Positions 10,389 to 32,600 of a DNA stretch of 35,254 bases are shown here, piece by piece. This stretch comes from Myxococcota bacterium. GTDB lineage: Bacteria; Myxococcota_C; UBA6777. The position numbers and the translations under genes were made by a program. Every line of letters starts with the position of its first letter. Positions within the stretch are counted from its first letter, which is position 1. The notes below the pieces were generated by a model. It was given only the letters and a program-made list of their open reading frames with translations. It was not told where the DNA came from and made no database searches. The DNA is taken from positions 1 through 35,254 of the forward strand of contig JAKLKB010000061.1 of assembly GCA_023150835.1 (NCBI GenBank), in the 5' to 3' direction.

Positions 10389-10508
10389 GACTTATACGAA
10401 ATCCGCCCGTTATATGATCGTAAAAAGGTAGGGTCAGCCCCCCGTAGCTGCCCTATTACAGGGCGTCTACGCACTATCTTTTGTGTATAAATCACTCGGA
10501 TATTGTCT
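10389..10508 (+). mobile_element. Repeat family A (MITE-like, REP-hairpin-bearing), degenerate single copy
   Basis: GACTTATACGAAATCCG...ATCGTAAAAAGGTAGGGTCAGCCC..GCTGCCC..AGGGCGTCTACG..CTTTTGTGTA..CACTCGGATAT. Matches the 81-bp unit and 18331-18448. Lies between convergent genes. Confidence 0.7.
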
Positions 10509-10511
10509 TGC

Positions 10512-12683: not shown

Positions 12684-15278
12684 ATGAATACAGGATGTCC
12701 AGATGCGTTGTGGGTGCGTGTGCGTGCGGGAAAGCCGGTATGTTGGATCGGCGCAGGCGTAGTGCGTTGCCTGCCTCCTGAGTGGAAAGTGTTGCGGTTG
12801 AACTGTGGTGTTGCGTGGTCGATGGGAGGCCCGTTGCATCGGGCATATCAGCAGATGCGCGCTTGGCTTGGCGAGCAAGTGGCCTTGTATCCGACAGAAG
12901 AAGACTCTGTGCGAGTTTCTTTGTTGGAGGAGATGCCTTTGCAGATGTTGGAGCCGTTGTTGATCAAGTCGAGCCAACAGCTTGCGGAGCGTTTTGCGGG
13001 GCGGATGTTGATCTGGTTTGATGCGGTCGAACGGGCCGATCAAGGTGTGTTGTCGGCGCTGCGTCGGATGTTGCTGGCGAAAGATCCGTTGGCTTTGCCG
13101 TGGGTGTTAAGCTTTCACGAAGAACCTCAAGCCGAAGTGGCAGGTTTCTTGGCGCAAGTGAGCGAGCGTTGGGGAGAAGAAGTACGCATCGAAGGGCAGG
13201 GCGAAGGATACGTCTCTCCCGAGCGCTTTGGGTGGGAGCAGCTACCTGCACCGATCTTGCGGGTGCTGCGTGCGGGCGCTTTGGTGGGCAGCAGCTTTGA
13301 GGTCGATGCTGCGGGTTATTTGGTCGGGAAAAGCAATCAAGATGTGTTGATGTCGCTGCAAGAGGCCGTCGATCTAGGTGCTCCGTTGGTCGATTATGGC
13401 GATGGGCATCTTTTTTTGCCGCCCAAAGCCGTCGAGCGATTGCTTGGGTCGATGTTGCCCTCGCTACGGGCGCTTTGGCATGAAAAGTTGACGGTCTGGT
13501 TGGCGGGGGATCTCGTCCAAACCACAAAGACCCCTCCAAAAGCGGACCTCTCCTCCGTGGCTTCCGCATCGTTTGAATCCCCCGCACCTCACAGCACGCA
13601 CGAGGGCGCGTTGCCCGAGACCACCGAAACCAATCTGGTTCCTTTTTCTTTGGAGCGCCAACAGGCCGAAGAGGCTCAAAGAGAAGGCGCACGCATTGTG
13701 GTGAAACGTTCGGAAGATTCGCCGATATCGTCTTCTCAAGACCACAAACGGAAGATCCACCGCGAACAAGAAAGAGTCGTTTCTTCCCCATCGAACGGCT
13801 CTCAAGACACGTTCGATCCATCGTTGAGCGACGAAGAACGTGCGGGGCTATTTGCTTCATTGTTTGATTCTGTCGAGACCGACGAGATCAAAGAGGCCGC
13901 TAGAGCAGCAGCAAAAACACCGCTCCCCTCGCACGAAAAACAAACCGAGCCACAAACCGAACCACACCATCGGCGACACACACATTCGCCGATTCGTTCG
14001 GTCCATTCGATGCCTTCGGCGTGGTCTCCTGCGCGTCCAAAGAATGTGTTGGGTGGCAGCGGTCTTGAAACGCGAAAGTTCCCGCACCTTCGACCTGTGG
14101 ATGTACCCAAGTTAAAGCCCACGATGCCGAAAGATCGGGTGCGGATGGCCGAGCATCTTCGCGAAGCAGGTCATTTGACCGAAGCTGCCGAACAATACGT
14201 GGATGCTTCGCGAGAGGCGATGAAGGCGGGAGAGAGCCAACGTGCGTTGTTGTTGATCCAGCAAGCGATCACGCTGTTGGAGGAGATGCCTGAGTCTCCC
14301 GTCCGATCGCTGTTGGAAGCGCGGGCTTTGTTGGAGTTGGGCCGCTTGCAATGGTTGGGGACTTTTCCCGAGGCGACTTTTTCGCTGCAACAAGCGTTAG
14401 CTTCGATGGATGCGGCAGAAGCAGCGTTACCGTTTGATGCGCCTCCTGAGATGGTCGGAGAGATCGCTTCGTTGAAAGCGGGTGTGAGTTGTGATCTTGG
14501 AGAGGCCAAGGTGTTGGAGCGTTCGTTGCGTGAGTTGACGCAGATCAGCCGCCAGTTGCTTGCGGAAGGGCAGCCGCTTCAAGCGGCGCGCCTGCTCAAC
14601 GAGCAAGCCGCTGTGTACATCCGTTTGGGCGATCCTGTGCAAGCAACGCATCTGTTGTATCGTTCACGTGGCCTGTTTGATGATATCCTTGCCAAAGAGC
14701 CGAACCATTCGACCGCACAAGAAGAAAGCGCCGATACCGAACATCTTTTGGCGCGGCTCGCGCTACACGTCCCCTTGCGTCCCGGTCGCGAAGAAGAAGC
14801 GATCGCGATGAGCCTCCAACATGCCCGAAACGCCGAGCGTTGGTATGCTGCCCAACGCCGCTTTCATGCGCTAGGCCGCGTTTGGGGGACGATGGGCCGA
14901 CTCGAACTCAAGCGCGGTCGCCTCGAAGCTGCACAACAGCGTTTGATCCAATCGCTTGAATTGCAACAGCAAAGTGGCGATCTCACGGGCATGGCGCGCA
15001 CGCACGATGCGTTGGCGCAACTCTTTCTGTTGCAAGGCAACGAGATCGAAGCTGTGCGCGTGTTGGGTGCCTCCATCGCGCTCAACTTTGAAAAAGGTGC
15101 GCCGCTGGGTGTGGCCTTTAATCGACGGGCTTTTGATCAGCTTTTGCAACACCTTCAAACGCAACGCATCACGCCCACCACCGCGCTTCAACAACAGATC
15201 CAACAAACCGAAGCCTTGTTGCTGGAGGCCGAGCGGATGCTTGGGCGCGTTGCTCTGCCTCGAACCATCGGTGTCTAA
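12684..15278 (+). CDS. TPR protein with degenerate STAND/AAA-like N-terminal region and low-complexity linker
   Basis: Walker-B-like [11 protein letters not shown] and winged-helix-like LP....[12 protein letters not shown], but no Walker A. S/P/E-rich middle, helical TPR-like C-terminus. Start uncertain (12633 or 12684). Confidence 0.7.
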
Positions 15279-17422: not shown

Positions 17423-17621
17423 CGTGGTTTTGGTTTGGGATGTTGATGTGGTCTTGAAGGGCCGCGTGGACACAAATCAGCCCGAAGCATACTCAGGAGC
17501 CGAGTGGTTTGGGATCTTGAAGGGTCGTGTGGAAGGGGGGTTTGGAGGGGAGTGGGAGGCTTGTGCGGGGAGGGCGGATTGTGTACAAGAGAAGTCTCGA
17601 TCTTTTTTCAAGGAGTGTGGA

Positions 17622-18332
17622 ATGGTGCGGTGGTTGTGGGTTTTGGGAGTTATGGCGGCATCGGCGTTTGTCGTGGGTGTGGCGTTGGAGATGTACTGGT
17701 TGCGGTTGTTGACGAAGCCGATACCTGTGGGCTGTATGGCGGCGTGGCTGTGGTTTCGGGAAGAGGAAAAGGGGTGGTATGAGTGGGGGATCTTGTTGGG
17801 GCTGTTGTGTTCGATCGGGGGGGATATGTTTTTGGAGTTGAGTGCGGGGATGTTTGTGGTGGGGCTGGGTTGGTTTTTGACGGCGCATCTGTTTTATGTG
17901 ATGGCGTATACTTCGGCGACACGGCGCGCGGTGGCGTTGCAGTTGCTGCCGTTTTTGGGGTATGGGGTGGCGTTGTATGCGTATATGTACGGCTCGATTC
18001 AACAGAAGTTTCCGCGTCTTGTGATCCCTGTGGCGCTGTATACGTTGGTGATCTGTTGCATGATGTGGCGAGCAAGTGCGATGTTGCAAGAGGCGGATAT
18101 TCGGCGTCAAGCGGCATGGTCGGCTTTGTTGGGGGCGATGATCTTTGCGTCGAGCGACTCGGTGATCGCGTTGAATAAGTTCGTTTGGCCGATCCCGGGG
18201 GCTCGTTATGTGATCATCGTGACGTATTGGCTTGGGCAATTGGGGATCGTGCGTTCGGTGATGCGGGCAGAGGCGACAGCTTCGGAGGCCGAAGGCGCGA
18301 AGTCTCGGACGTATGTGCAGCGGGCTGGTTGA
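17622..18332 (+). CDS. yhhN: Lysoplasmalogenase (YhhN/TMEM86 family) membrane protein
   Basis: KPIP, SIGGDMFL, F..GL..FL.AH..Y, PV..Y, GA..F..SDS.IA, and TYWLGQ. AAGGAG RBS. Confidence 0.9.
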   Translation: MVRWLWVLGVMAASAFVVGVALEMYWLRLLTKPIPVGCMAAWLWFREEEKGWYEWGILLGLLCSIGGDMFLELSAGMFVVGLGWFLTAHLFYVMAYTSATRRAVALQLLPFLGYGVALYAYMYGSIQQKFPRLVIPVALYTLVICCMMWRASAMLQEADIRRQAAWSALLGAMIFASSDSVIALNKFVWPIPGARYVIIVTYWLGQLGIVRSVMRAEATASEAEGAKSRTYVQRAG

Positions 18333-18448
18333 TACGATATCCGAGAGATCTGTGATCGAAGCAGAGCGCCCAGACGCCCTGTGCTTGGGCCACAGGGGGC
18401 TGCCCCTACTTTTTTACGATCACACACCCTGCGGATTTCGTATGAGTC
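18331..18448 (-). mobile_element. Repeat family A (MITE-like), complete copy with terminal inverted repeats
   Basis: Begins GATACGATATCCG and ends CGGATTTCGTATGAGTC. Internal reverse-strand GTAGGGGCAGCCCCCTGTGG..CAGGGCGTCT. Overlaps the yhhN stop codon. Confidence 0.75.
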
Positions 18449-18492
18449 GGTGCGTTTTTTGTTCGAGGGTCAACGTGACGCGGATCGGCTTG

Positions 18493-18599
18493 TTTTGTGG
18501 GGCTTTGCCCCCATGTGGAGCGAGAAGATCATCGTTTTTTCAAACCAACGAAGCCGTCGCTTGAGCGGGTGCGAACACGGGGTTTTTTGTCCGCAAGCG
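18493..18599 (+). repeat. Dispersed intergenic repeat family B, copy 3 (internally deleted)
   Basis: TTTTGTGGGGCTTTGCCCCC...GTCGCTTGAGCGGGTGCGAACACGGGGTTTTTTGTCC. Lacks the AAGGG/CCCTT hairpin segment present in copy 1. Confidence 0.8.
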
Positions 18600-18627
18600 A
18601 CGCTGATGAAGAAAGCGAAAGATCGAG

Positions 18628-19902
18628 ATGGAGTGGCGTTTGGATGAGGCGTGTGCGCATGAACAGGATCGCGCAGATGATCTAGGGCGATTGCGGGAGG
18701 CGTTTTGTTTTCCGTATGCGTCGGGGAAAGATGGTGAGACGCTGCTGTATTTTTGTGGGAATTCACTGGGGCTTCAGCCTGTGGGGGTTGCGTCTGCGAT
18801 CGAACAAGAGTTGCAAAAGTGGTCGTCGCAAGCGGTGGAGGGGCATTTTATGCCGCCAGAGCCGTGGTTTCGGTATCACGAGCTGTTGCGCGATGGGATG
18901 GCTTCGTTGGTGGGGGCGATGCCGCATGAAGTCGTGGTGATGAATAGTCTGACGGTGAATCTTCACTTGTTGATGATCTCGTTTTATCGGCCCACATCGG
19001 CGCGTTACAAGATCGTGATCGAAGAGGGAGCGTTCCCTTCGGATCGTTATGCGGTGGGAAGTCAAGCGCGTCTGCATGGTTATGCGCCCGAGGAGGCGGT
19101 GTTGCGGTGGTCGCCGAGGGCAGGCGAAGATCTCTTGCGCATCGAAGATCTCGCGGATATCTTGGACAAACAAGGCGATCAGATCGCGCTGTTGATGCTG
19201 GGGGGTGTGCATTTTTATACGGGCCAATGGCTTGCGATGCGTGAGATCGTCAAGATGGGGCATGCAGCGGGTTGTCTTGTGGGGTTTGATCTTGCCCATG
19301 CAGCGGGGAATGTGCCGTTGTCGCTACATGATTGGGATGTGGACTTTGCGGCGTGGTGTTCGTACAAGTACATCAACAGCGGGCCGGGGGGAGTCGCAGC
19401 GGCTTTTGTTCACGAAAAGCATACGCAAGATCCGAGTCTCTTGCGCCTTGCGGGATGGTGGGGAAATGATCCTGACAAGCGTTTTGCGATGGAAGAGTCG
19501 TTTGTGCCGGTGGCTTCGGCAGATGCGTGGCAATTGAGCAATGCGCCGATCTTGTCGATGGCAGCGTTGCGTGCGTCTTTGGATGTTTTTGCGCAAGCCT
19601 CGATGGAAGCATTGCGCGACAAATCTGTCCGATTGACGGGGTATTTGGAGTTTTTGTTGGAGCAGATGCCTGCGTCTTCTTACACGCAGATCACGCCCAA
19701 AGATCCGAACCAACGGGGAGCGCAGCTTTCGATCCGCGTCCACACAGGAGCGCGGGATCTGCAACAGAAACTTCAAGAGGCAGGGGTGATCTGTGATGTG
19801 CGTCGCGATGTGATCCGTGTGGCACCGGCGCCCTTGTACAATCGCTTCCACGATGTTTGGCATATTGTTCAGATCCTGAGGGGGATTCTTCATGGCTCTT
19901 GA
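18628..19902 (+). CDS. kynU: Kynureninase
   Basis: YFCGNSLGLQP, MNSLTVNLHL, AFPSD.YA, FDLAHAAGN, PLP-Lys motif WCSYKYINSGPG, GWWG, and RVAPAPLYN. Confidence 0.97.
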   Translation: MEWRLDEACAHEQDRADDLGRLREAFCFPYASGKDGETLLYFCGNSLGLQPVGVASAIEQELQKWSSQAVEGHFMPPEPWFRYHELLRDGMASLVGAMPHEVVVMNSLTVNLHLLMISFYRPTSARYKIVIEEGAFPSDRYAVGSQARLHGYAPEEAVLRWSPRAGEDLLRIEDLADILDKQGDQIALLMLGGVHFYTGQWLAMREIVKMGHAAGCLVGFDLAHAAGNVPLSLHDWDVDFAAWCSYKYINSGPGGVAAAFVHEKHTQDPSLLRLAGWWGNDPDKRFAMEESFVPVASADAWQLSNAPILSMAALRASLDVFAQASMEALRDKSVRLTGYLEFLLEQMPASSYTQITPKDPNQRGAQLSIRVHTGARDLQQKLQEAGVICDVRRDVIRVAPAPLYNRFHDVWHIVQILRGILHGS

Positions 19903-19988
19903 GGGGCATGGGGCGGGCTATCGAGGGTGGTTGGGACAGGAAGCGAGGGGAGCGGGTCGTGGTGGGTATGTGAAGGGCATGGGGTGGG

Positions 19989-21113
19989 CTATCGATGGCG
20001 GATGGGACAGGGCGATGGGCTCCAAGCATCGAGCGGGCTTGGGATGGATTGAAGGTCAAGCGGCAAGTGCCACGAGGCGTCGTGTTCCCAAGCGAGGTCT
20101 TGGGGGAGACAGAGGCGGCGGACTTTTTCGATGGGATGGCCTTCTTCGACGAGATGCTCTACAAAACTGGCGCGCAGATTGGAGCAAGAGATAGATTCGT
20201 TGAGTCCGATGGCGCGGGCCGCACGTTGAAGGCTCTTTTGAAGGGTGCTTTCGTGCATATGATCTTGGCATTCAGGGCGTTCAGCCCGAAACAGCGGGCT
20301 ATTAAGCGACATAAAAACGTATCTCCAACTCCAAGCGTTGGCTTCTGAGCCGTTGCCTCGGCGCAGATAGACGGGGAGTCGGACGGCAGCAACACCATGT
20401 TTCAATTCTTCTTGGTAACGCCAGCGTGCGTGTTGGAGGTGGCGGATCAGCGGCTCGTAGAGATTGCGCGCCATGCGAACGGCACGCGAAGGTTTTCCTC
20501 GGGCATCGCGGATCAAGACGGTGGCATGGGTGAAATCGAGATCACGGACACGCAAGCGCAACACCTCAAACAGGCGCATCCCGCCGTTGTACATCAACAT
20601 CGCGGCAAGTCGGTTGTTTTCGTCCATGACTTGAAACATCGCGGAAAGCTCTTCGCGGGAAAGCGGACGTGTGCGCAAGCTATCGGGGGCGAGTCGCGGT
20701 TGGTTCGGATGGGAGCGGGTGGGCTTGGGAAAGCAAAGGCGTTGTAAAAAGCTGAGGGCAGCGCGGGCTTGAGCGATGCTGCTTGGAGAGCGTAGATCTT
20801 GTTGGAGTTTTTGCAAAAACAGGTCGCAAAGGGATTGAAAACCGGCGGGTTGGTCGGCAGAGGCAGGAGCGATCAACCGTTGTTTTTGCAAGGCGTCCCA
20901 AAAGCGCACGCACCAATGATGATAGGTGAGTAAGGTTCGCTCGCTGTAATCTCCCGCATGACGGGCATGTTTGAGGCAGAGCAAAAAGCTGTCTTTGGTG
21001 GTGTGTCTGAGCAAAAGTGCGGGGAGAGCAGGAGATTTGTGTTCGGGTGAGGGGAAACGAGAGGAAGAAAACGGTCTGTGTGGGGTATTGGTTGCGCCGA
21101 GTTGCATGGTCAT
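19989..21113 (-). CDS. Integron-integrase (IntI)-like tyrosine recombinase homolog, predicted catalytically inactive
   Basis: YSERT..TY.HW..RF, SPSS..QA.AAL.FL, LMYNGGMRLFEVLRLRVRDLDF, integron-specific insertion VRLP.YL.R.......W.WRYVF, HMHESTLQK, and terminal SPLD. GGAGG RBS before ATG 21113. Catalytic H/H/Y replaced. Confidence 0.88.
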   Translation of the reverse strand: MTMQLGATNTPHRPFSSSRFPSPEHKSPALPALLLRHTTKDSFLLCLKHARHAGDYSERTLLTYHHWCVRFWDALQKQRLIAPASADQPAGFQSLCDLFLQKLQQDLRSPSSIAQARAALSFLQRLCFPKPTRSHPNQPRLAPDSLRTRPLSREELSAMFQVMDENNRLAAMLMYNGGMRLFEVLRLRVRDLDFTHATVLIRDARGKPSRAVRMARNLYEPLIRHLQHARWRYQEELKHGVAAVRLPVYLRRGNGSEANAWSWRYVFMSLNSPLFRAERPECQDHMHESTLQKSLQRAARAIGLNESISCSNLRASFVEHLVEEGHPIEKVRRLCLPQDLAWEHDASWHLPLDLQSIPSPLDAWSPSPCPIRHR

Positions 21114-21424
21114 GGTGGCCTCCGAAACGATGGGGTGTGGATGGTTGCGCGAGCGATGCGTGGAGAAGCGAAAGCATCGAGCGCTTTTGTCTGCAAAGAG
21201 GCCCATGACAAGGGATGTTCCAACAGGAGATCAAGAAGTGCCTTCTCTTTATGTGTCGAGGTGTTGCGTGGTTTGGAAGGAGCAAGCAAAGCAAGCGAGA
21301 GCAGGGGATTGTCCAAAAAATGGCCGAGGGAGTGTTCGGGATGTGTGCATCGCCGAAGGGGCGCACAACGTTGCAAAGAGACAGATCGCCAAGAGGGAGG
21401 TTTGTGAAGAAAGGAAGTCGAGTA

Positions 21425-24400
21425 TCAGGGAAGGACGGGGAGATTGTCGATGGCTTTCCGAAGGAGTTCTTGGTTTTTGTGTGAAAAGCCGACAAGGTAG
21501 GAGATGATCTTTCCGTTGTGGAAGAGGACAAAGGTGGGTGTGGCGTTGATACGCAGTTTGGTGAAAAAGTCGCGTTGTGTGTCGACGGTGTTGTAAAAGG
21601 GCATGCTTTCGGGGTTTTGTGCGAGCCATGTGATGACGACGCGGGAGGTTTCGTTGCTGACGGTGAGGATGCGGAGGTTGCGGTTGGTGTAGGTTTTTTG
21701 GAAGGCGCGCAGGGCGGGGAGTGCGGCTTTACAGGGGCCGCACCATGTGGCCCAGAAGAAGGCGATCACCGTGCCTTTTTTGAGGTCGGGGAGAGGCTTG
21801 TTGAGATCGACAGAGAGCAGGGAACGGGTGTCAGGGGCGGCACGTCCGACGAGACTTTGTCGTTTCATTGAGGGCGGGTGGGTGAGGCGAAGGAAACGGA
21901 TATTGAGTTCAAGGAGTTTGCCATAACGAAAGACCAAGATCGGGATATCTTGGTCGGGTGGGCTGACCATGACACGCTCGCGGATCTCGAAGGGTTCGGT
22001 GAGTTCGTGTTTTCCGAGGGTGGTGATGATATCGCCTTCGCGGATGCCGGCGTGTGCTGCGGGTGTGTTGAGGTAGACTTCTTGGACACGGACAGCCCCA
22101 GAAGGAAGCAGCCAGCGTTCGGGGTTGGGGACGGGTTGGAAAGCGACGCCAAACCACGAAGGGAGGGGGATGTGCTCGCCTTCAAAGGAGAGGGGGCGGA
22201 GGTGTTCGGTGGTGGAGGTGTATTCTTCGCCGAGGGGGGTTTGTTCGCATTGGATAAGGTTGTGCAAGCCGCGCCGATAGCCGAGGTGATCGGGGTGTTG
22301 GCTGTGTTGGAGTAGGAGACGACCTGCGATGCGAAAGAGCAAGATCTCGATGCGTTGGAGGGCAGCGAGTTGAACTTTGCGTTGGAAGACAAAGTCGTGC
22401 ATCTCTTTTTCGCGCTGCTTGAGGAATCGCAGGCGCTCAAAAAGCATCGGGCGCATCTGAAGGTAGCGAAAGAAGGTTTGTTTGAGTTGGTTTGCGGTGT
22501 AGGCGTAGGTAGAAAAAGAGCGTTGGAAGCCTGTTTTTTTGGCGCGTCGTAGAAAGCGCAAGAAGTCAAGGCGGCGGAGCTGTTCGCCCGTACTGGGGGG
22601 GCCGACGGGAGGTTTTTGGAGATGGCGGAGCCGCTCGCGTAGTTGGCGGAGCCGTTCTTGGCGTGTGGCGGGAGTTTTGCGCGGCGTGGGATGGGTGGAA
22701 GGTGCGGACTTGGGGGCGTATCGCTGGCGCTGGCGCTCATATGCGCGAAGGCGCTGGAGGCGTTGATCAAGTTCGATGTAGCGTTGGATAAGTTGTTGCC
22801 GTCGTTGGTGGGCGGCGCGCTGTTGGGGAGAGAGCGGTTGTGGGCGAGAAGGGCGTTTGGATCGGGGTCGTCGGAGGAATTCGCTGAGAGCGCGATCGAC
22901 GCGTTGTTTGAAATCGGGTTGTTGTTTGAAGATGCCGTTGAGATGGTGATCGCGGGCAGTTTGGAAGACATTGGCCCACATACGTTCGACGCGCTCCCAC
23001 CAAGCGAGCTTTTTGCGCAGTTCGGCGCGTTGTTGTTGGAGGGCGGCGAAGTTGAGCGGGCTTTGGAGTCCGAAGCGACGGGCGATATCTCCGATCAGTT
23101 TGCGATCTTCTTGGATGCCGTCATACCCGAGCGAGGCGTATTGTTGGAGCAGTTGATCGCCGAGTTTGTACATCGAGATCTCGTCGGCTTGTGCGTCGGC
23201 TTGGAGCATGGCGTAGAGGTAAGCGTCAGAACTGCGGTGTGGGACGTCGGGGGTGCGGTCGGTCAGAAGGACTTGACGGTGAGCCTGATCGAGATCTTTG
23301 GCGGCACGCATCGCCAAGATAAAACGATACGCATGACCGACGTGTTTTTTGAGCTGGGTTTCGGGGAAACAGCCGTAAGCGTATTGGCTTGGGAGGGTGG
23401 CGTAGAAGCCGCAGCGGTCGCCTGTGGGGATGCCGAATACTCCGGGCTTTCGGAAGATGCTCCATGCAAAAGAACCCGAGAAACATTGCGACATCACCGA
23501 GACGATACGGCGTTGCCCAAAGGGCCGAAGCTGTTTGTGGAGTTGGCGAACGCTGAGCGACTCTTTCCAAAGAGAGATGGAGTTGTTGGTGAGTTTGGGG
23601 TCTTTGGAGTTGCGAGTGCCGTGATCGGTGACGAAAAGCAAGAGCGGACGGGGATCGTTGGGGTGTTTCTTTGCGAGTCGAGGCAGTTGTTTTTGGAGGG
23701 AGGCTTGGGTTGCAGGAAGCAACGTTGTATTCGGAAGATCAGTGTTGATCAGCTTGGGGCGTTGGACAAAGAGACGAGACTCACGACGCCCGTCAAACAG
23801 CCAACCTTGCGGATCTTGGCGCTTGTGGAGGATGGCTTGATCAGGTTTGGGATCTTGGCCGTCTGCGGAAAAGATGCTGATCTGCTCGGATGATAGGCCG
23901 CGTTCTTGAAGAACCATCCGCATCATCCGAAGATAGAGGACGTGGGAGTAATAATTGATATCGGGGGAGCCTCCACCGTTGAGCAGGATGGCATGCGCAA
24001 AAGGCCCGTGGCTGTGGCTCTTGTCTTGGGTGGGAGCAGGAGCGGAGGCGGATATCTTCGGATGGGCTTGGGGCTGTTTTGCGATCCGTGCGGAAGATTG
24101 GGCTGTTTGGGGTTGTTTTGTGATCCGTGCGGAAGATTGGGCTGTTTGGGGTTGTTTTGTGATCCGTGCGGAAGATTGGGCCGTTTGAGTCGATTGAGAG
24201 GTGGGAGATGTGCGTGCGGTGGGGCGGGAGGTGGGGAGAAGTCGTGCGATGGGGCGGGAGGTGGGGAGAAGTCGTGCGATGGGGCGGGAAGTGGGGAGAA
24301 GTCGTGCGTGGGGCATGTTTGGGGTGGGAGAGAGAGGTCGAGAAGTCGGGAGAGATTGGGCGAAGGCAGGAGAAGTGGGGAGGAAAAGCAGAATGGCGAG

Positions 24401-24439
24401 CCAAGGGGCGTACCGCAAAGGGCGAAGGAGGCTTGGCAT
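21425..24439 (-). CDS. Secreted multidomain protein: clan CD (C13 legumain/caspase-like) cysteine peptidase, helical region, PDZ, and TlpA-like thioredoxin
   Basis: Signal peptide ending PAFA. LLLFVTDHG and SVMSQCFSG His/Cys dyad. PDZ WFGV...VQEV...TPAAHAGIREGDII. FWATWCGPC and TPT. GGAG RBS. Confidence 0.8.
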   Translation of the reverse strand: MPSLLRPLRYAPWLAILLFLPTSPAFAQSLPTSRPLSPTPNMPHARLLPTSRPIARLLPTSRPIARLLPTSRPTARTSPTSQSTQTAQSSARITKQPQTAQSSARITKQPQTAQSSARIAKQPQAHPKISASAPAPTQDKSHSHGPFAHAILLNGGGSPDINYYSHVLYLRMMRMVLQERGLSSEQISIFSADGQDPKPDQAILHKRQDPQGWLFDGRRESRLFVQRPKLINTDLPNTTLLPATQASLQKQLPRLAKKHPNDPRPLLLFVTDHGTRNSKDPKLTNNSISLWKESLSVRQLHKQLRPFGQRRIVSVMSQCFSGSFAWSIFRKPGVFGIPTGDRCGFYATLPSQYAYGCFPETQLKKHVGHAYRFILAMRAAKDLDQAHRQVLLTDRTPDVPHRSSDAYLYAMLQADAQADEISMYKLGDQLLQQYASLGYDGIQEDRKLIGDIARRFGLQSPLNFAALQQQRAELRKKLAWWERVERMWANVFQTARDHHLNGIFKQQPDFKQRVDRALSEFLRRPRSKRPSRPQPLSPQQRAAHQRRQQLIQRYIELDQRLQRLRAYERQRQRYAPKSAPSTHPTPRKTPATRQERLRQLRERLRHLQKPPVGPPSTGEQLRRLDFLRFLRRAKKTGFQRSFSTYAYTANQLKQTFFRYLQMRPMLFERLRFLKQREKEMHDFVFQRKVQLAALQRIEILLFRIAGRLLLQHSQHPDHLGYRRGLHNLIQCEQTPLGEEYTSTTEHLRPLSFEGEHIPLPSWFGVAFQPVPNPERWLLPSGAVRVQEVYLNTPAAHAGIREGDIITTLGKHELTEPFEIRERVMVSPPDQDIPILVFRYGKLLELNIRFLRLTHPPSMKRQSLVGRAAPDTRSLLSVDLNKPLPDLKKGTVIAFFWATWCGPCKAALPALRAFQKTYTNRNLRILTVSNETSRVVITWLAQNPESMPFYNTVDTQRDFFTKLRINATPTFVLFHNGKIISYLVGFSHKNQELLRKAIDNLPVLP
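24068..24308. repeat. Two in-frame tandem repeats: 39 bp x3 (24068-24184) and 30 bp x3 (24213-24308)
   Basis: They encode TAQSSARITKQPQ x3 and ARLLPTSRPI x3 in the peptidase N-terminal linker. Confidence 0.9.
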
Positions 24440-24515
24440 AAGAAAAACTCCGAAGTGAAGGCACGCCATCGGAGCGTTTCTCCAAGGCATGCTTGGGGGG
24501 GTTGAACGGATGGCG

Positions 24516-25274
24516 TCAGGCGGTGTGTTTGTGTTCGAGGGTGTGGTGTGAGGATTGTTTTCCACGAGCATTCCAGTCGAGGATCAGGAAAAAGACGATC
24601 ATCAAGATAAAGGCCGCAGCAGCGATGGGAAGCCAAAAGATATCTTGGTGGGGAGGGATGGCAAGGATGCGCTCACCAAAGCGCTTGACGTAGGCATCCA
24701 AGATCTGCTTGTCGGTATGGCCTGCGACGATGCGCTTTTTGAGGTCCAGTTTGATCTGATCGGAGGCAGGGCTGGGGTGCATGGAGACGGGTTGTACCCA
24801 ACAGCAAGGAGCGATGATCAACGTGAGCAGGTGCTGATAACGCCGAAGTTGGGCAGCATTGAGGGTGGGCGCATCTTCGGCCTTTTTGGGGGCGGAAGAG
24901 GCTGTCAGCGAGTCTGGGTTGTGGCTGGGGGGGGGCGCGTTGGTGGGCACCGAAGGAACGGGGCTTTGTGTGGATGGCGTGTTGTTTTGTGTCGAAGGTT
25001 CGGTTTTTTGTGCGGATGATGGGTTGCTTTGTGCCGAAGGTTCGGTTTTTTGTGCGGATGAAGTGTTGTTTTGTGCGGAAGGAGCGGCAGAAGATGATGC
25101 TGTGGTGGAGGGGAGAGGGATGGGTTGGAGGCGTGACCATCGCGGTGCGGGTGGCTTGCGTGGTGCGGGTGTGGTGGTGGTCGGTGGTGCTGCGTGAAGT
25201 GTGTGGGCAGCGCAAAGCAAGGCCACCGCGAGGAGGGGTTGAAGAGATCGTTGCAATGTCGGGAGTGCGGGCAT
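24516..25274 (-). CDS. ccmH: Cytochrome c-type biogenesis protein CcmH/CycL-like (APCC variant)
   Basis: IIAPCCW.Q.V..H.S.AS..IK......G.TDKQILD.YV.RFGERILA.P followed by a TM helix. Signal peptide and a 42-bp-repeat S/T/P linker. AGGAG RBS. Confidence 0.8.
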   Translation of the reverse strand: MPALPTLQRSLQPLLAVALLCAAHTLHAAPPTTTTPAPRKPPAPRWSRLQPIPLPSTTASSSAAPSAQNNTSSAQKTEPSAQSNPSSAQKTEPSTQNNTPSTQSPVPSVPTNAPPPSHNPDSLTASSAPKKAEDAPTLNAAQLRRYQHLLTLIIAPCCWVQPVSMHPSPASDQIKLDLKKRIVAGHTDKQILDAYVKRFGERILAIPPHQDIFWLPIAAAAFILMIVFFLILDWNARGKQSSHHTLEHKHTA

Positions 25275-25318
25275 TGTGGGGTCTCCTATCCGCAGAGATC
25301 GAACGGATGCGGGTGCGT

Positions 25319-26245
25319 TCAATGAGGTCGGCTGGTTGGTGCGTTGGGGGCGCGTTGTAGAGCAGGAGCGGGTCTTGGTGTGGGGTCGTGTTGCAGGGCG
25401 GGTGCGATCTGGGGTTGGTTTGGCGCGTGTTGCAGCGTGGGTGCGGAGGGACGAGAAGCAGAACCGTGTTGCAGCGTGGGTGCGGAGGGGCGAGAAGCAG
25501 AACCGTGTTGCAGCGTGGGTGCGGAGGGACGAGAAGCAGACATGGGTTGTGTGGCGTGTAAGGGCGGTGGTGTGGGCTGTTTGGGAGCGGGGGAAGAGGT
25601 GGGAGGGTGTTTTTTCGACTTGAGTTTTTGGATGAGTTGGCGGAGGGCGTTGTCGGAGAGACCGCCCGTTGCGTAATGAGCGACGCGGGCATCGGGTCCG
25701 ATCACGACGAGGCTAGGGAGGACACGGATCTTGAATTGCGCGGAAGCGCGGGGTCCGATGTGATGGTAGGCCCATTCGTTTTGGGGGATCTTGTATTTGG
25801 TGAGGAAGGTTTGAAGTTCGCTGGTGGGCATTTGGAGATCGGTGCTGACGAGAAGGGATTGGATGCCTTGTTCTTGGAGAAGTTTGGCGCGTTTGGAGGC
25901 GCTTGCAAGGCCACGGATGCAGGTGGGACACCATGTGGCCCAAAAGTGCAGGACAGTGATCTTGCCTTGGAGAGTGGGCTTCCATTTTTTGGCTTTGTGG
26001 ACATCGATGAGGACAAAGCGTGGGGCTTGAGCGCCTTTGGGGATGGAGGGTTTGGGTTGGTTGAACATCCGAAATGCGACAAGGGCGAGTAGAACAAGGA
26101 TCAAGAAGTTGAGCATGGAGCCGGCAGGATCGCGGCGTTGTGGTCCTTGTGACGAAGAAGTCCCGTTGCGGCTGTGTTTGCGCGAGGCGCGTGGGGAGGC
26201 ATCGGGTTCATCGTGAGGCAAGGGGCGAGCTTGTTTGGGTGACAT
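25319..26245 (-). CDS. TlpA/CcmG-family membrane-anchored disulfide reductase
   Basis: TM anchor, G.QAP.F.L, GKITVLHFWATWCPTC, and VLPSLVVIGPD. C-terminal tail with 39-bp x3 repeat (25426-25540). Confidence 0.88.
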   Translation of the reverse strand: MSPKQARPLPHDEPDASPRASRKHSRNGTSSSQGPQRRDPAGSMLNFLILVLLALVAFRMFNQPKPSIPKGAQAPRFVLIDVHKAKKWKPTLQGKITVLHFWATWCPTCIRGLASASKRAKLLQEQGIQSLLVSTDLQMPTSELQTFLTKYKIPQNEWAYHHIGPRASAQFKIRVLPSLVVIGPDARVAHYATGGLSDNALRQLIQKLKSKKHPPTSSPAPKQPTPPPLHATQPMSASRPSAPTLQHGSASRPSAPTLQHGSASRPSAPTLQHAPNQPQIAPALQHDPTPRPAPALQRAPNAPTSRPH

Positions 26246-26263
26246 GGTGGTCCTCTGTGTGGG

Positions 26264-27499
26264 TTATTCTTCGGAGCGGATGCCGTGTTTGCGTTCGACG
26301 GACTCGTAGAAGTCGATCATTTGGCGGACATACGCTCGTTTTTCGATATACGATTGAGGGAAAAAACTACGCTTAAACCCGTAGATGACGATATTGCGGA
26401 GTTGGTGAGGGGTGAGGTCAAAGTGTTCGGCGGCGAGTTGAACTTCGTTGCTGACGCTGGTGTTGGAGATGGTGCGGTTGTCGGTGCAAAGGGTCACGCT
26501 GAGTTTGGCGTCGAGCATTTTTCGGAAGTTGTGATCGGCGATGCTGGTGAGTTCGGGCATGGTTTGGAGATTGCTGGTCAAACAAACTTCGATGGTGATA
26601 CGGCGTTCGGCGATAAACTGGGCGAGTTGTTTGATGTAAAGTTCGCGGTCAAGGATGCGTTCATTTTGGATGCGGTCGGCGCTGAAGAGGTGGTAGCAAT
26701 GACCGATGCGATCAGCGTGGAGGGTGGTGATCGCTTGGAAGATGCTTTCAGGGCCGAAGGCTTCGCCTGCGTGGACGGTTTTGCTGAGGAAGTGGCGATG
26801 GACGTAGCGGTAGGCTTCGACGTGATCGTCGGCGGGGTATCCGTCTTCTTGTCCGGCGAGATCGAAGCCGACGATGGGGATGCCTTCATCGCGTTTGATC
26901 GCGACGATGGCTTCGGCGAGAGAGTTGGAGGCGAGGCTATAGAGGCGGGGGGTGGCGGTGTAGGTGTGGACATCATTAAAACGGCGGAAGTACTCGGAGA
27001 AGTTTCGTGTAAACATCCGCATGGCGCAAGTGATGATGCCGTATTCAAAGGGGGGTTCTTTGCCATCGCGGATATCGGGGAAGTTGTTGAATTCTTTTTT
27101 GGCTTTGGCGAGTCCAGCGTTCACATGGCGGAGGACTTGGGCCATATTGAGTCCGGGGCGGCTGTGGAGTTGGGGAGCGAAACGGACTTCGATGTAGCGG
27201 ACGCCTTCGGTAAAGTTATCGCAAGCGAGTTCATAGGCGCAACGTTCGAGGGCTTCGCCTGTTTGGAGCACAGCGACGGTGTATTGAAAGCCGCTCAAGT
27301 ATTCGCCGAGGTGGGCGTATCGGGCTTTGAAGACGGTTTCTTTGAGTCCGTCTTCGGTGTACGAAGGGAGGGGGACTTTTTGTTCTTGGGCGAGTTCGAT
27401 CAGGGTTTTGATGCGGATGGAACCGTCGAGATGGAGATGAAGATCCGTTTTGGGGATCTCGCGGATAAATTCGGGGGTAAGCTGGTTATTTTTGGTCAT
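26264..27499 (-). CDS. add: Adenosine deaminase family protein
   Basis: PKTDLHLHLDGS, YIEVRFAP, GFDLAGQE, TVHAGE, RIGH, EVCLTSN, and CTDN. Confidence 0.93.
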   Translation of the reverse strand: MTKNNQLTPEFIREIPKTDLHLHLDGSIRIKTLIELAQEQKVPLPSYTEDGLKETVFKARYAHLGEYLSGFQYTVAVLQTGEALERCAYELACDNFTEGVRYIEVRFAPQLHSRPGLNMAQVLRHVNAGLAKAKKEFNNFPDIRDGKEPPFEYGIITCAMRMFTRNFSEYFRRFNDVHTYTATPRLYSLASNSLAEAIVAIKRDEGIPIVGFDLAGQEDGYPADDHVEAYRYVHRHFLSKTVHAGEAFGPESIFQAITTLHADRIGHCYHLFSADRIQNERILDRELYIKQLAQFIAERRITIEVCLTSNLQTMPELTSIADHNFRKMLDAKLSVTLCTDNRTISNTSVSNEVQLAAEHFDLTPHQLRNIVIYGFKRSFFPQSYIEKRAYVRQMIDFYESVERKHGIRSEE

Positions 27500-27909
27500 C
27501 AAATATCCTCGTGTTGGGTTCGAGAGGGCGAAGATTCTGCCTGTTGGGGAGCGGGGTGCATTGTGCGCGATGACAAGCGAAGGCAGGCAGAACGAAGCGT
27601 GAGTGTTGCAGGGATAGCGTTCAAATTGACCGAAGCATCGGGTCTTTTCGGCTTTTGATCAAAGGCTTTGCCCGCGCCGTAGATTAAATTCGGTGTATTA
27701 TGGGGCGGGGGGGATCGAAGCGCAAGGCCATCAAAAAAGAACAGCGAGCAAGAGACAAGGGACGCGATCGAAAGACTTGACCTGTGGAGGGTTTTGCGAA
27801 AAGATGGCCGATAACGCAAATCAAAGGCTCCAAGAAGGCAGCCCAACGTGTCGAGCAAGCCGTCGGGTTGGGGTTCAAAGGCAGCACAACAGGAAGGGAA
27901 TGGATTACG

Positions 27910-28464
27910 ATGTCAGCGAGAAGATGGTGTTTGTGGGTGGTTTGTAGCGTGGGGTTGTTGTGTGGGATCCGCTCGGTGGCATGGGCTGAAACGGAAAAAG
28001 AAAAAGAAGCCCGCGACAAGATGATCAAAGAAAAAGCTCAGCAAGACGAGCTTTTTGATGTGAACTTTATGAAGGTGTATCGTGAAGCCCAAATCAAATT
28101 CATCCAGCAATCTTATGATCAAGTGATCGGGATGACGCAAAACTTGTTGCGGATGCGCAAGTCCGCACGTGCGATGTTTTTGATGGCGACCGCTTACAAG
28201 GCCAAGGGGCTTTATCCCCGCGCCATCGACCTTTTCCAACAAGCCGCAGGGACGTTCGACGACAAGAGCCAATTTTACGAAAAAGCGCAGTCTCTGTACA
28301 ATGTTGCGTTTTGTTATGAACTCTCGAAGAATCGGGCGCAAGCGATCTCTGGTTGGCAGCTTTATATCAACTTTGCTAACAATTATCCCCAAGAATCCGC
28401 CAGTGTCGCCTTTGCTCGCGCTCGCATCGAGCTACTCAACAGCATCAAAGACAAAGCCCCCTGA
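27910..28464 (+). CDS. Exported tetratricopeptide-repeat protein
   Basis: Signal peptide ending AWA, TPR motifs AMFLMATAYKAKGLYPRAIDLFQQA and SLYNVAFCYE...AI..WQ.YI..YP. Confidence 0.8.
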   Translation: MSARRWCLWVVCSVGLLCGIRSVAWAETEKEKEARDKMIKEKAQQDELFDVNFMKVYREAQIKFIQQSYDQVIGMTQNLLRMRKSARAMFLMATAYKAKGLYPRAIDLFQQAAGTFDDKSQFYEKAQSLYNVAFCYELSKNRAQAISGWQLYINFANNYPQESASVAFARARIELLNSIKDKAP

Positions 28465-28540
28465 TTTGTTTGCTGTGTTTTTTGGATCGCCGTAGGAGGG
28501 AGGGAGTAGGTCAAGACATCCGATGGTTGGGAGCCTCGGA

Positions 28541-29470
28541 TCAATCGCCGTAGGAAGGGGGGGCAGGGGAGTAGCGAGAAGGCGGAAAATAGGGAGGTGT
28601 GTGAGGGGGAGGGATGATGATCGGGCGTGGTCGGTAGTGGTAGGGACGGCAGTAACGTGTAAAGATGCCGGTGTTTTGGAAGCCTGCGCAATTGTTGTAG
28701 CGGAGGGCGAGTTGCCATGTGGGGGCCATCGAAGCGCGGCGGAAGGTGGTAAAGACAGAAGGGGCGTGTTGGTGCTCGCCATAAGCGGTGCCAAGGCCGG
28801 GCTGATGTGGGGGGCGGAAGGGGCGTCGCCAGCGGTGGTAGGGCATACCTGCTGCGGATTTGGCGCGAGAGGGAGCGGGTTCGCGGTCGGCGTCTCGGGT
28901 TGCAGGTTGTCGTTGTTCTTCGGCGCGTCCGTCGTGTGCGCCGCGACGGAAGGGGACAGGATGCGGGTGTGGGATATAGGCGATGGGTTGGTGTTCACGG
29001 AAGACAGAGACACGGATCGAGCCGATGTCGTAGAGCGGACCGCCCATCCTTGCGGCATAAGAAGACGATATCGAGGAGAAACGGAAAGCTGCCACGCTGT
29101 GCTGACTGGTGCGAAAGCCCGTGATATCGACATAAGCATACGGGTTCAGCACGTACCCGCGATGGATATCGGGGCGTGTGGGTTGCCCGTTGATCACATC
29201 GCGTCCGTCCACAGCAGTCACGACTTCGATGCGTTGGTTGGTGAGGTTGCGGATCAAGATCGAGTAGGGTTGTCCGCGTCGTCCAAGCACGAATATCTGG
29301 CCGTGATGCCAGAAGTGAGGGAGGGAGCTTCCGTGACTGCGCAGTTGCACGCTTACCGCTCCAAGGGAGACTTCGCCTCCGCTGCCTGCGATCCGTGCGG
29401 TGGCACAGCCAAGTTGAGGCCAAAAAAGCAAGGTGCCTGTGAACAAAAAGAAACGTAAGAGTGTTGACAT
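28541..29470 (-). CDS. Conserved hypothetical exported protein or lipoprotein
   Basis: Lipobox-like QLGC, beta-rich core G..YSILIRN....RIEVV..VDGRDVING...GY...I.GFR......AF.F, GLGTAYGE, and a Pro-rich tail. GGAG RBS. Confidence 0.75.
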   Translation of the reverse strand: MSTLLRFFLFTGTLLFWPQLGCATARIAGSGGEVSLGAVSVQLRSHGSSLPHFWHHGQIFVLGRRGQPYSILIRNLTNQRIEVVTAVDGRDVINGQPTRPDIHRGYVLNPYAYVDITGFRTSQHSVAAFRFSSISSSYAARMGGPLYDIGSIRVSVFREHQPIAYIPHPHPVPFRRGAHDGRAEEQRQPATRDADREPAPSRAKSAAGMPYHRWRRPFRPPHQPGLGTAYGEHQHAPSVFTTFRRASMAPTWQLALRYNNCAGFQNTGIFTRYCRPYHYRPRPIIIPPPHTPPYFPPSRYSPAPPSYGD

Positions 29471-29634
29471 GGTTTGTATTTCTCCGCATAGAGTGGTATC
29501 CAAAACTGCCTCGTCTTATACGAACGCTCAACAAAAAAGATCTTTACAGGGGTCGAGCCAAAAATTGTGCGGGTGGTGTGCGCCTCTCGAAGTCCGCGGT
29601 TGAGCGCGTTGTGCAACGTGTTAGGAAAAGCAAG

Positions 29635-32600
29635 ATGGAAAACCAAAATCTGGGTGGCTCGGTGTCGTCGTTCTCATCGTTGGAGATCTGTGGCTTGTGC
29701 GGCCATGCAAACCCGCTGGATCAGCGGTTTTGCGGTCAATGTGGTGCGGAATTAAAGGCGTATCTCCAACGGATGCGGGAAGTTCAGCGTGGGACGCAAG
29801 AAGGCCCCCAGATCCAAGTGACCTTTTTGTACGGCGTGTTTGGGGAGTCCGAGGGAGGCGTTCGAGACGCCGAGACGTTGGACAAGCTGCGCAAGCGGTT
29901 GATGGGGCGTTTTCGTTTGGTGGTGACAGAGCGAGGAGCCAAGTTCGAAGACATGGGGCGCGGTCGTTTTAGTGCGACGTTGGGGATTCAAGATCCGACC
30001 GAAGAAGATCCACTTGACGCGGTGACGTTGGGGTTGAAGCTGCTGCGCTTGTCTGCGGTGGCTCCGCAACTTCCGCCGCTACGCCTTGCTGCAACGACGG
30101 GGCGCATCGCGAAGGCGTCCATTGAAAAGCCTTTGGCCCAAGAACAAGACGCCGAAGAGATCGTGGGTGGGCATGGCCTATTGCGCCTTGCAAGTAAGGT
30201 GGTTTGGCATTGTCCTGTGGGTGGTTTGCTGGTGGATGGTCTGACCTATCGGATGATCCGAGACACCCATCGCTGCAAGCGATTTCGTTTGGGCGGCGGG
30301 GTGCTGTCTTCGACCGCCTTTTATGAGGTGGAAAGCTCGGTCGATGCGGCGGGTGCATCCTACGATCCTCCGCTGGTTGGGCGAGATCGCGAGATGGCGC
30401 GGATGGTGCGCGTGTTCGAGCGCGTCGAAGTGGGAGAGGGGCCGATCTTTTTTACGCTGACAGGAGAACTGGGGATTGGAAAGACGCGCTTGTTGACGGC
30501 GTTTCAACAGCAGATCTCTGGTCGGGCGATGCTGTTTCGCAACCCCCGTGAGCGCCGTCGAATCGACCGATGGCGTCGCACTCCTTACTCCTATTTTGCC
30601 GAGATCTTGCGGGCCTTTTTCGAGATCTACGAAAACGAAGAGGACGAACTCAGCCGCCAAAAACTGGTGCAAGGGATCTTGAGTACCACCACCGAACAAA
30701 GTGATGGCCGCTTGCGCGAAATGACCCATCTGATCGGGCTTTTGTGCCAAGTCGACTTTCCAGACTCCCCCTACATCGACGCCGAACGCGAAGATCCCAC
30801 TCAACTCGAACGCCGCGCTTTTACGGCCCTCACCAACTATCTTGAACGCGCTGCAACCCGCCGCCCCATCGTCTTTTTGCTCGACAACTTGTATTCGGCG
30901 GATACTTCCTCGATCCGCTTGTTGAAGCATCTTGCCCAGTATCTCGAAAGCGCGCCTGTCTTGTTTGTGTGTGCTTCGCGCAGCTCGCTGTTGGCGCAGC
31001 TTGAAGAAGAAGCCTCGCTGATCTTGCCGGGTGAACGGCTGACTTTGCGCCCACTTTCCGAAGAGGCCGCTCGCAAGATGCTCAGCAGCCTTTTGCCTGA
31101 GCGCGCCCAACTTTCTCAAGACGCGATCACTCGGGTCTTGTCGATCGCCGAAGGCAATCCCTTCTTTTTGCGTGAGTGCTTGCGTGATCTCCATGAACAA
31201 GGTCTGTCCGCGCTGACCGCAGAAGGGGGGGCCGATCAGATCGATATCCCGGGAAGCATCGAAGGCATCTTGCAAGCGCGGATATCTCGACTGCAACCCG
31301 ATGAGCGCGATATCTTACAAAAGGCCGCTGTTTTCGGTAAAAGCTTTTGGCGCGGCGGCGTCGAGATGTTGTTGCGCTACGAAGGCGAGATCAAACCCGG
31401 ATGGCGCGTGGCCGATGGAGTGCTGCTTGATCGCGACGATGACGCCGAAGATATCTTGACGCGCCTAGAAGCCCAAGGCGTCGTCCAGATGAATCATGCC
31501 ACCACCTTCGACGGCGAGGCGCAGTACAGTTTTGTCCCGAGCCTGCTTCAAGAACTGGTCTACCAAGAACTCCCCGAAAAGCTATTGCCTGCCTACCATC
31601 GACTCGCTGCGCAATGGTTGGAACTGGTCGCCCGCAACAAACACCAAGATCTCGGTGCAGATATCGCCCATCATCTGGAGCTTGGCGAACTTTCCTCGCG
31701 TGCGGCGTTGTACTGGCTTGAACTCGGCCAGCGCGCAGTCAAGGCTTTTTCCCTTGATTCCGCCATCGAATACCTCGAAAAAGCCCTGAAACATCTCGAT
31801 GGGACGCTTTCACATAAGCGCGTCGAAGGCTTGCGCTCCCTCGCCGAAGCCCACCTCCAACAAGGCCGTTATCCCGAGTCTATGCGCTGCTTTGAACAAT
31901 TGTTGAGCTTGTCTTGGCAGATGGGGCAACGCGTCCTTGCTGCCGAAGTCTACACCCGCATGGGATGGGTCGCCTTTTTGATGCGAGACTTTGACAAGTC
32001 CCTCGATCTGCTCAAAAACGGCCATTGTTTGCACCAAGAAAGCGACTACATCCGAGGCGTCGCAATGGCGCTTTCGCACATGGGAAAAGTCTACACCGTC
32101 TTGGGCGATTACGTTCAGGCCCGTCTCTACCTTCAAGAAGCCTTGGATATCCGACGCCAACTTGAACACGCAGGAGACCTTGCTTGGACGCTCAACGATG
32201 TCGGCAACCTGTATTTTGAACAAGGCGAACTGGCCGAAGCGCGGCGCTATCACCAAGAGTCGTTGGAGATCCGCCGCCGACTCGGACATACCCCGCAGCT
32301 TTTGCAGTCGATGAATAACCTTGCGCTGCTGCATGTCGCCCGTGGCGATTATGATGCCGCACTCTCCGAGCTTTTGGATATCTTGGAACTGGCCGAAAAA
32401 ACCGGCGATAAACTGGCCTTGGCGGTGGTCTTGGCAAACTTGGGCGAAGTCTACCTCTTACAAGGCGAATTGAATGCTTCCGCTCAACATCTCGAACGCG
32501 CCATCCAGACCGCAGGAAAGCTCAGCGATACCCTGATCTTGGCGGAGTGTTATCGGTTGTATGGTGAACTGGCCTTGGAGCGCGAAGCCCCCTTGGTTGC

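Follow-up and report, generated by a model that had tools for sequence, protein, structure and literature searches.

IntI-like gene, domains and active site

The stretch of DNA analysed here (contig JAKLKB010000061.1, 35,254 nucleotides at its full length and called the window below) comes from a 7.56 Mb assembly of 239 contigs and carries on its minus strand a gene related to those of the integron integrases (IntI). This gene, P0001, was originally predicted, from the sequence and without database searches, to encode an intact but catalytically dead IntI with no cassette array, possibly put to another use by its host. It is a single uninterrupted open reading frame (ORF) of 374 amino acids behind a good ribosome-binding site, just as that prediction had described it (Table 1). 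A longer reading of 405 amino acids from an ATG at 21206 was rejected, because relatives carry a 1-base indel between both ATGs and the orthologues all begin with MT.

The product matched the Pfam family Phage_integrase (PF00589) over residues 151-334 with 65.4 bits (cut-off 27.1; E = 6.9e-18). Its top NCBIfam family was the integron integrase TIGR02249 (166.8 bits, E = 7.2e-49, model positions 5-286 of 315), whose curated cut-off of 265 was not reached, followed by XerA with 70.2 bits. When 177,635 distinct sequences of the Protein Data Bank (PDB) were searched at E up to 0.001, there were two matches, 2a3v and 4a8e, the closest being the integron integrase VchIntIA (2a3v, E = 2.1e-30). The motifs DYSERT..HHW, LPVYL...AWSWRYVF, DHMHES and SPLD (residues 359-362) are present, so that every IntI hallmark named in the original prediction (YSERT...HW, LP.YL...W.W..VF, HMHE, SPLD) was found. 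The IntI-specific insertion, judged here by alignment and not by the IntegronFinder intI_Cterm profile, aligns without a large gap to VchIntIA and likewise to 71 IntIs; W263 within it is invariant in 76/76 aligned sequences and 17 of its 42 positions are invariant within the family. An AlphaFold2 model built from the 76-sequence alignment had a mean pLDDT of 82 and a pTM of 0.71, and a Foldseek comparison of this model with the PDB returned 2a3v chains as its top three matches (E ~3e-15), with Xer, Cre and Tn1549 integrases next. IntI stands far ahead of any other family for this protein, both by sequence (TIGR02249, 2a3v) and by fold.

Tyrosine recombinases use the catalytic set R-K-H-R-H/W-Y, and two arginines of this set hold the scissile phosphate. 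The catalytic columns were read from the alignment of the IntI-like protein, four family relatives and 71 IntI homologues taken from database searches, while the earlier comparison was with IntI1. The set of the IntI-like protein is R-R-S-R-P-A, in which two of the six positions are kept and four replaced, and the same four are replaced in all five family members (Table 1). All of the changes listed at first sight of the sequence (Tyr>Ala, LGH His>Pro, HTLRH>SNLRA and GKG>ARG, with both Arg retained) were seen at the catalytic columns against the 71 homologues, and the C-terminus does align without gaps both to an intact IntI encoded by this genome and to further IntIs. An alternative tyrosine in the active site, which had been named as a possible refutation, is excluded as far as can be read from the alignment: the family-invariant tyrosines are Y56, Y64, Y175 and Y265 alone, and none of these four lies in the C-terminal segment.

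The C-terminus is remodelled. Residues 336-364 are 83, 52 and 34% identical to those of P0003, P0004 and P0006 (9 of 29 positions invariant), compared with 83, 62 and 52% for the catalytic-type domain, and L340, W342, P351 and PSPLD.W are conserved within the shared family pattern LC...L.W.....[WF]..P......PSPLD.W. In the model, the stretch 336-359 lacks any helix of at least four residues, and in a control model of the intact IntI encoded on contig C47 of the same genome (pLDDT 94.2) two helices, 297-300 and 302-310, surround the tyrosine in the equivalent stretch. A conserved family-specific segment stands where the Tyr-bearing helix should be, and the protein, to judge from these aligned columns, is an IntI derivative unable to use the standard chemistry of tyrosine recombinases.

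Table 1. Features of the IntI-like gene, its surroundings and the other integrase loci of the genome. Positions are those of the window unless a contig or locus is named.
Feature	Position	Strand	Remarks
IntI-like gene P0001	19989..21113	-	374 codons + stop
Ribosome-binding site GGAGG	21119..21123	-	5 nt ahead of ATG at 21113
N-terminal tail, residues 1-45	20979..21113	-	pLDDT <50 for residues 1-33; 4/45 invariant in family
Core-binding (SAM-like) domain, residues 46-130	20724..20978	-	PF13495 23 bits, under cut-off of 27
Catalytic-type domain PF00589, residues 151-335	20109..20663	-	
IntI-specific insertion, residues 244-285	20259..20384	-	VRLPVYL...AWSWRYVF...QDH
Remodelled C-terminus, residues 336-364	20022..20108	-	
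Arg I: R180	20574-20576		kept; R in all five family members and in 68/71 IntI homologues
Lys: R205	20499-20501		family R/R/R/R/Q (Q in P0006); K in 62/71 IntI homologues
His of HxxR: S311	20181-20183		family S/S/S/S/C; H in 63/71 IntI homologues
Arg II: R314	20172-20174		kept; R in all five family members and in 71/71 IntI homologues
His after Arg II: A315			H in 69/71 IntI homologues
His of LLGH: P337			family P/P/P/T/D; H in 68/71 IntI homologues
Tyr nucleophile: A346			family A/A/T/T/D; Y in 66/71 IntI homologues
Upstream spacer, 311 nt	21114..21424	-	between PDZ-thioredoxin gene and IntI-like gene
26-nt unit (TTCTTCACAGACCTCCCTCTTGACGA-like)	~21385-21410		single in window
kynU	18628-19902	+	convergent with IntI-like gene
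41-nt direct repeat	19900-19940 and 19971-20011		copies 88% identical, spaced 71 nt
1048-aa PDZ-thioredoxin protein	21425-24571	-	directly upstream, same strand as IntI-like gene
30-nt and 39-nt tandem repeats	24068-24382		encode N-terminal part of 1048-aa protein
Thioredoxin-type gene(s)	25319-26245	-	
Palindromic repeat (~115 nt), copies in window	149-232, 10389-10514 and 18332-18448		
Palindromic repeat, copy in L022	L022:11171-11297		
Intact intI of C47	C47:38592-39536		322 aa
Imperfect palindromes of C47 (L026)	42109-42236 and 44501-44607		~100-125 nt, 2.4 kb apart
Intact IntI of C51 (L002)	C51:652-2442		596 aa

Origin, family and selection

A FastTree phylogeny of 80 sequences (78 of them IntI-type), with two Xer-like proteins from this genome as the root, placed the five family members in one clade with a support of 1.0, nested inside the 78 IntI-type sequences. 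The stem of the family measures 1.10 substitutions per site, and its tips lie 4.4-5.0 from the root, where the remaining IntIs have a median of 3.24. A long stem followed by constraint is, on these sequences, what one would expect if a burst of change had preceded conservation. At least one non-canonical catalytic residue or gap was also found in 13 of the 71 IntI homologues nearest to the family profile (P0038, P0042, P0043, P0048, P0062, P0098, P0099, P0125, P0131, P0138, P0140, P0155 and P0163), so altered IntI active sites are no rarity in the closest relatives, and there may be further IntI lineages in which the active site has changed. Examples of such sets are QQQRHY, RRDRHY and RHSRHL, and some of these proteins cluster with the family in the tree.

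A word-indexed protein search, in which 8000 candidates were scored, gave 16 proteins at E up to 1e-5, including five family members, namely P0002 (98% identity), P0003 (74%), P0004 (MCB9639664.1; 51%, annotated at source as a tyrosine-type recombinase/integrase of a Myxococcales metagenome-assembled genome), P0006 (42%) and the partial ORF P0005, after which the score falls from 262 bits to 121. When a profile was run exhaustively against 1.84 billion cluster representatives, 17,792 proteins came up at E up to 0.001, of which only P0004 (650.7 bits), P0006 (584.0) and the partial P0005 (206.4) stood above the ordinary IntIs, which begin at 192.2 bits, and with so few representatives there the family is very small. 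Contig scans of genomes and metagenomes found near-identical loci in L022 and L025 only, and the order-level and phylum-level searches covered 6 species genomes. In one other assembly of the genus the gene was called in pieces, P0005 (316 aa) and P0167 (107 aa) lying on a single contig of 310,715 bases.

The frame is intact in the full-length family sequences (P0001-P0004, P0006, P0165, P0168 and the orthologues in L022 and L025). Against the same-genus orthologue of L022, with 95% amino-acid identity, the IntI-like gene has 51 synonymous and 17 non-synonymous differences, giving a synonymous divergence (dS) of 0.225 and a ratio of non-synonymous to synonymous divergence (dN/dS) of 0.089, and residues 301-374, which include the remodelled segment, have 8 and 4 such differences and a dN/dS of 0.14. 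Over the same genome pair the neighbouring genes gave 0.093 (kynU), 0.088 (PDZ-thioredoxin gene) and 0.167 (YhhN). The IntI-like gene is under purifying selection as strong as that on its housekeeping neighbours. The view that it is maintained rather than decaying is upheld by this ratio and by the four replaced positions, which are shared by four independent orthologue lineages at 42-98% identity; the signs by which simple decay was to be recognised, a close orthologue with an intact active site and a dN/dS near 1, were not seen, the orthologues found being substituted alike.

The stretch or part of it was found in 20 runs from 10 studies; most carry the label activated sludge or sludge, and this DNA may have come from two of them. 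In three RNA-Seq libraries from one sample, contigs include pieces of the gene without differences at a depth of ~3-8. This is a weak hint of transcription, since DNA carry-over is possible and contigs cannot show strand, ends or level.

Genomic context and integrons of the same genome

As first described, the neighbours of the gene are kynU and a redox cluster of thioredoxin-type genes (Table 1), and an adenosine deaminase gene is also among them. A Pfam scan of the ORFs at 12.6-29.5 kb gave no transposon-gene match, and PADLOC gave 0 matches, the IntI-like protein included. The gene has a GC content of 0.565 compared with 0.55-0.59 in the flanks, and the gene order around it is the same in the same-genus genome G001; by both measures it is a resident gene. 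In two genomes of other genera of the family, G004 and G005 (13.6 and 18.2 kb examined), kynU stands in another context, with no IntI-like or PDZ-thioredoxin match. The synteny with kynU that was to be checked is shared within the genus only, and a functional link to kynU was rejected, a neighbourhood conserved in just one genus being uninformative on function. Among orthologues of the upstream PDZ-thioredoxin gene, P0171 (62%) is on a contig whose length, 105,887, equals that of the contig with P0004, and no such agreement in length was seen for the contigs of P0003 or P0006.

The spacer upstream of the gene is 93.2% identical to that of G001, compared with 87.2% at third codon positions, and presumably contains the promoter and leader. 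Rfam gave 0 matches over 17.3-25 kb, a promoter scan found 1 site where 0.5 were expected, and a terminator scan found none. The 26-nt unit near the upstream end of this spacer is tandemly doubled in the spacers of L022 and L025. On the downstream side, the spacer is just 41% identical to that of G001, and the 41-nt direct repeat (Table 1) sets a copy of the last codons and the stop of the IntI-like ORF beside the kynU stop. The upstream 1048-aa protein joins PDZ and thioredoxin/redoxin domains, to which many homologues add a peptidase C13 domain (PF01650). The plus-strand GC skew, followed at 17500-30000 and 32500-35000, is very strong (+0.24 to +0.40 over ~12 kb, across genes of both strands) and switches to -0.33 at the end of the window.

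A palindromic repeat of ~115 nt, resembling repetitive extragenic palindromes and miniature inverted-repeat transposable elements (REP/MITE-like), is abundant in this genome, with 717 blastn matches on 191 of the 239 contigs. It is present in G001 (41/41 matches listed were positive) and gave 0 matches in G002-G005, so that it co-occurs with the IntI-like gene in two genomes and is missing along with it from four. In G001 one copy is located in the gap from the stop of the IntI-like gene to kynU. There are 3 copies in the window, where ~3.3 would be expected in 35 kb at the genome-wide density.

The original prediction had found no attI core or attC sites near the gene. Our searches agree in that they gave no attC-like site at 17-25 kb. 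The genome as a whole does have integrons: it encodes two IntIs above the TIGR02249 cut-off, on contigs C47 (444.7 bits, 322 aa) and C51 (340.1 bits, 596 aa), both with intact HxxRH, LLGH and Tyr motifs. Two imperfect palindromes with common ends (GATGCCNAACAAATCGCNGCA ... GCTCAGGCGTTGGNC) flank the intact intI of C47 on its divergent side and are read, by their sequence, as putative attC sites (attC-like). The second intact IntI, with an N-terminal extension of ~270 residues, is encoded at the edge of contig C51, and any cassette array beside it would for that reason be unassembled.

A home-made hairpin scan was run on contigs C47, C230 and C51. Its positive control, the C47 site at 44504-44605, ranked first in its contig; the second C47 site fell outside the 8 best of that contig, so the scan is of limited sensitivity. 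The eight best candidates of the window all lie within 145-244, 14825-15035 and 33099-33208. A repeat search at 19-22 kb gave nothing attC-like, a strict scan of the whole genome for RYYYAAC/GTTRRRY left 0 matches after filtering and missed the C47 sites too, and a genome search with the end motifs of C47 recovered the two C47 sites and noise only.

Interpretation and rival explanations

The explanation that we favour, at a probability of about 0.7, is that P0001 encodes a pseudo-recombinase: a paralogue from inside the IntI clade that has lost the chemistry of cutting and is kept as a selected chromosomal gene in a narrow uncultured lineage labelled Myxococcota. Such a protein would still bind DNA in the manner of a recombinase, as a clamp between the core-binding and catalytic-type domains, and might form an oligomer through its retained SPLD tail. 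As the covalent 3'-phosphotyrosyl intermediate could not form, it would act as a site-specific or structure-specific DNA-binding protein; by analogy with other inactivated recombinases, the IntI-derived protein probably now only binds DNA. In this form the earlier interpretation survives as to a dead IntI derivative that is maintained and not decaying; the roles it proposed, a DNA- or hairpin-binding regulator or a dominant-negative inhibitor of true integrases, would be candidates only.

As for what the pseudo-recombinase would bind, an architectural or regulatory role unrelated to integrons seems the best guess, at somewhat less than even odds. Binding to integron sites (folded attC or attI), by which the two active IntIs of the genome would be modulated, is a tentative but serious candidate, and binding to the abundant palindromic repeat would be a minor one. 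In its most specific form, which we consider doubtful, the protein would be a dedicated non-cleaving gatekeeper of integron recombination that binds folded attC (or attI) via its IntI insertion and, through site occupancy or through mixed tetramers with the two active IntIs, sets the rate of cassette excision and capture.

Several observations weigh against the pseudo-recombinase. The hairpin scan, within its limited sensitivity, gave no attC-like candidate at 17-25 kb, a conserved repeat near the gene is lacking, and the upstream spacer does not recur elsewhere in this genome. Among 1.84 billion representatives the family is a tiny one, and its dN/dS comes from one close pair only. No orthologue was found in G002 (same genus, 64% complete) or in G003-G005 (same family, 86-94% complete), which makes the gene dispensable or patchy. 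The pieces P0005 and P0167 could reflect pseudogenisation in that assembly; P0005 also runs through the stop of the upstream gene, and this points instead to indel errors in the assembly. In the tree, the surrounding subclade has 11 members, 10 of which have non-canonical active sites, and with these and the 13 altered homologues the exact placement of the family may suffer from long-branch attraction.

The first rival to be considered is a decaying integron remnant, that is, an inactivated intI without attC sites (In0) which drifts to loss after missense mutation. Inactivation of IntI is common, 43-46% of intI homologues being apparently inactivated and the phenomenon being reported as pervasive (Cambray et al., 2011, PMC3108266), and the missing attC-like sites nearby, the absence from G002-G005, the gene in pieces in one assembly and the 13/71 non-canonical homologues would all fit such a remnant. 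Nevertheless, the frame is intact in every full-length family sequence found, the dN/dS of 0.089 equals that of kynU, and the same four replacements recur across 42-98% identity together with a new conserved C-terminal motif, so that we regard decay as very unlikely. An artefact of sequencing or assembly, in which a 3' frameshift hides a normal LLGH...Y terminus, could be suspected from the profile match that ends at model position 286 of 315. This frameshift, which had been named as a refutation, is excluded in that an LLGH...Y motif is absent from both alternative frames of the 3' end; the same C-terminus is moreover found in independent assemblies and metagenomes (P0002, P0165, P0168, L022 and L025) and in orthologues at 74, 51 and 42%, SPLD is in frame past the degenerate segment, and contigs from other runs match without differences, which leaves an artefact with a practically negligible probability.

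The two remaining rivals concern function. In Flp the nucleophile is supplied in trans by a partner subunit, and the protein might likewise be a still active recombinase or nuclease with an unconventional site, in which the nucleophile comes from a partner or from another residue. Both Arg, the family-invariant K207 and the conserved H285/H287 would speak for this, as would W342, invariant and five residues past the lost His, and the two intact IntIs of the genome could in principle form mixed complexes with it. On the other side, the loss took four of the six catalytic positions at once, the general-acid Lys (replaced by Q in P0006) and the His among them, residues 336-358 contain no family-invariant Tyr, Ser or Thr, and the Tyr-bearing helix is not predicted; retained activity is hence judged improbable, if a little less so than decay. 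A hairpin binder dedicated to the ~115-nt palindromic repeat, derived from a hairpin-recognising recombinase and analogous to the prophage repressor MrpR, could be argued for by the 717 matches on 191/239 contigs, by the shared distribution of repeat and gene, and by the recognition of folded single strands by IntIs (PMC2095811). That distribution comes down to two genomes against four, the two positives are close kin (dS 0.23) and the co-occurrence is thereby effectively one observation. The window's copies match the genome-wide density, and no attC-like R/L box ends could be made out by eye. Repeat families are usually species-specific. A dedicated repeat binder is on balance unlikely.

Compared with known IntIs (VchIntIA and the C47 and C51 enzymes), the pseudo-recombinase has the two-domain fold, the insertion with its conserved Trp, HxHE, SPLD and both Arg. 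It differs from them in lacking the Lys, both His and the Tyr nucleophile, in its remodelled Tyr helix, in a 45-residue disordered N-terminal tail, in a TIGR02249 score of 166.8 where 265 is required, in its long stem branch, and in that no attI or attC is recognisable near its gene. An intI without attC sites is not unusual, with 51 of 215 in complete genomes counted as In0 by Cury et al. (2016, PMC4889954), and given this and the pervasive inactivation of intI, an inactive IntI without an array is not new in itself. P0001 resembles In0 and inactivated intI genes as an intI-type gene that has no adjoining attC and is predicted to be non-functional as a recombinase (PMC4889954, PMC3108266); those are scored as losses of function by stops, frameshifts or inactivating missense changes, whereas this gene is intact, selected and carries the same substitutions down to 42% identity.

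A closer parallel is offered by two proteins with a recombinase fold, lost catalytic residues and a maintained gene. TnsF is an inactivated tyrosine-recombinase derivative that Tn6022-like Tn7 transposons use to select their DNA target (Faure et al., 2023, PMC10293859), and MrpR (YopR) acts as master repressor for the Bacillus prophage SPbeta, with a recombinase fold, no recombinase activity and a repeated element to which it binds (Kohm et al., 2023, PMC10516654). TnsF is Xer-like, bears N-terminal zinc fingers and belongs to a transposon with TnsABC/TniQ, whereas the present protein is IntI-derived, the ORFs at 12.6-29.5 kb gave no transposon-gene match with Pfam, and the protein itself gave none with PADLOC. 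MrpR is a prophage protein of a different lineage, and no MrpR chain was among the matches of the PDB sequence search. A conserved, catalytically dead IntI paralogue under purifying selection was not found described in the literature searched, the scope of which did not extend to subscription journals and supplements.

IntIs have been studied as enzymes, and copies that are inactive tend to be dismissed as products of decay, by which the cost of recombination is relieved. The IntI-like gene described here suggests that the IntI scaffold may be reusable for a non-catalytic job, in which the chemistry is lost while the attC-recognition insertion and the phosphate-binding arginines are kept under selection. 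It would join TnsF and MrpR among the few dead tyrosine recombinases known, as a case derived from integrons, and given the 13 of 71 homologues with altered sites the phenomenon may be wider than this family. If the protein does act on attC or attI, it would represent a new layer of integron control and a natural, cleavage-free binder of folded single-stranded DNA; and if it should be a gatekeeper, it would be a protein-level regulator of integrons that evolved by duplication and inactivation of an integrase.

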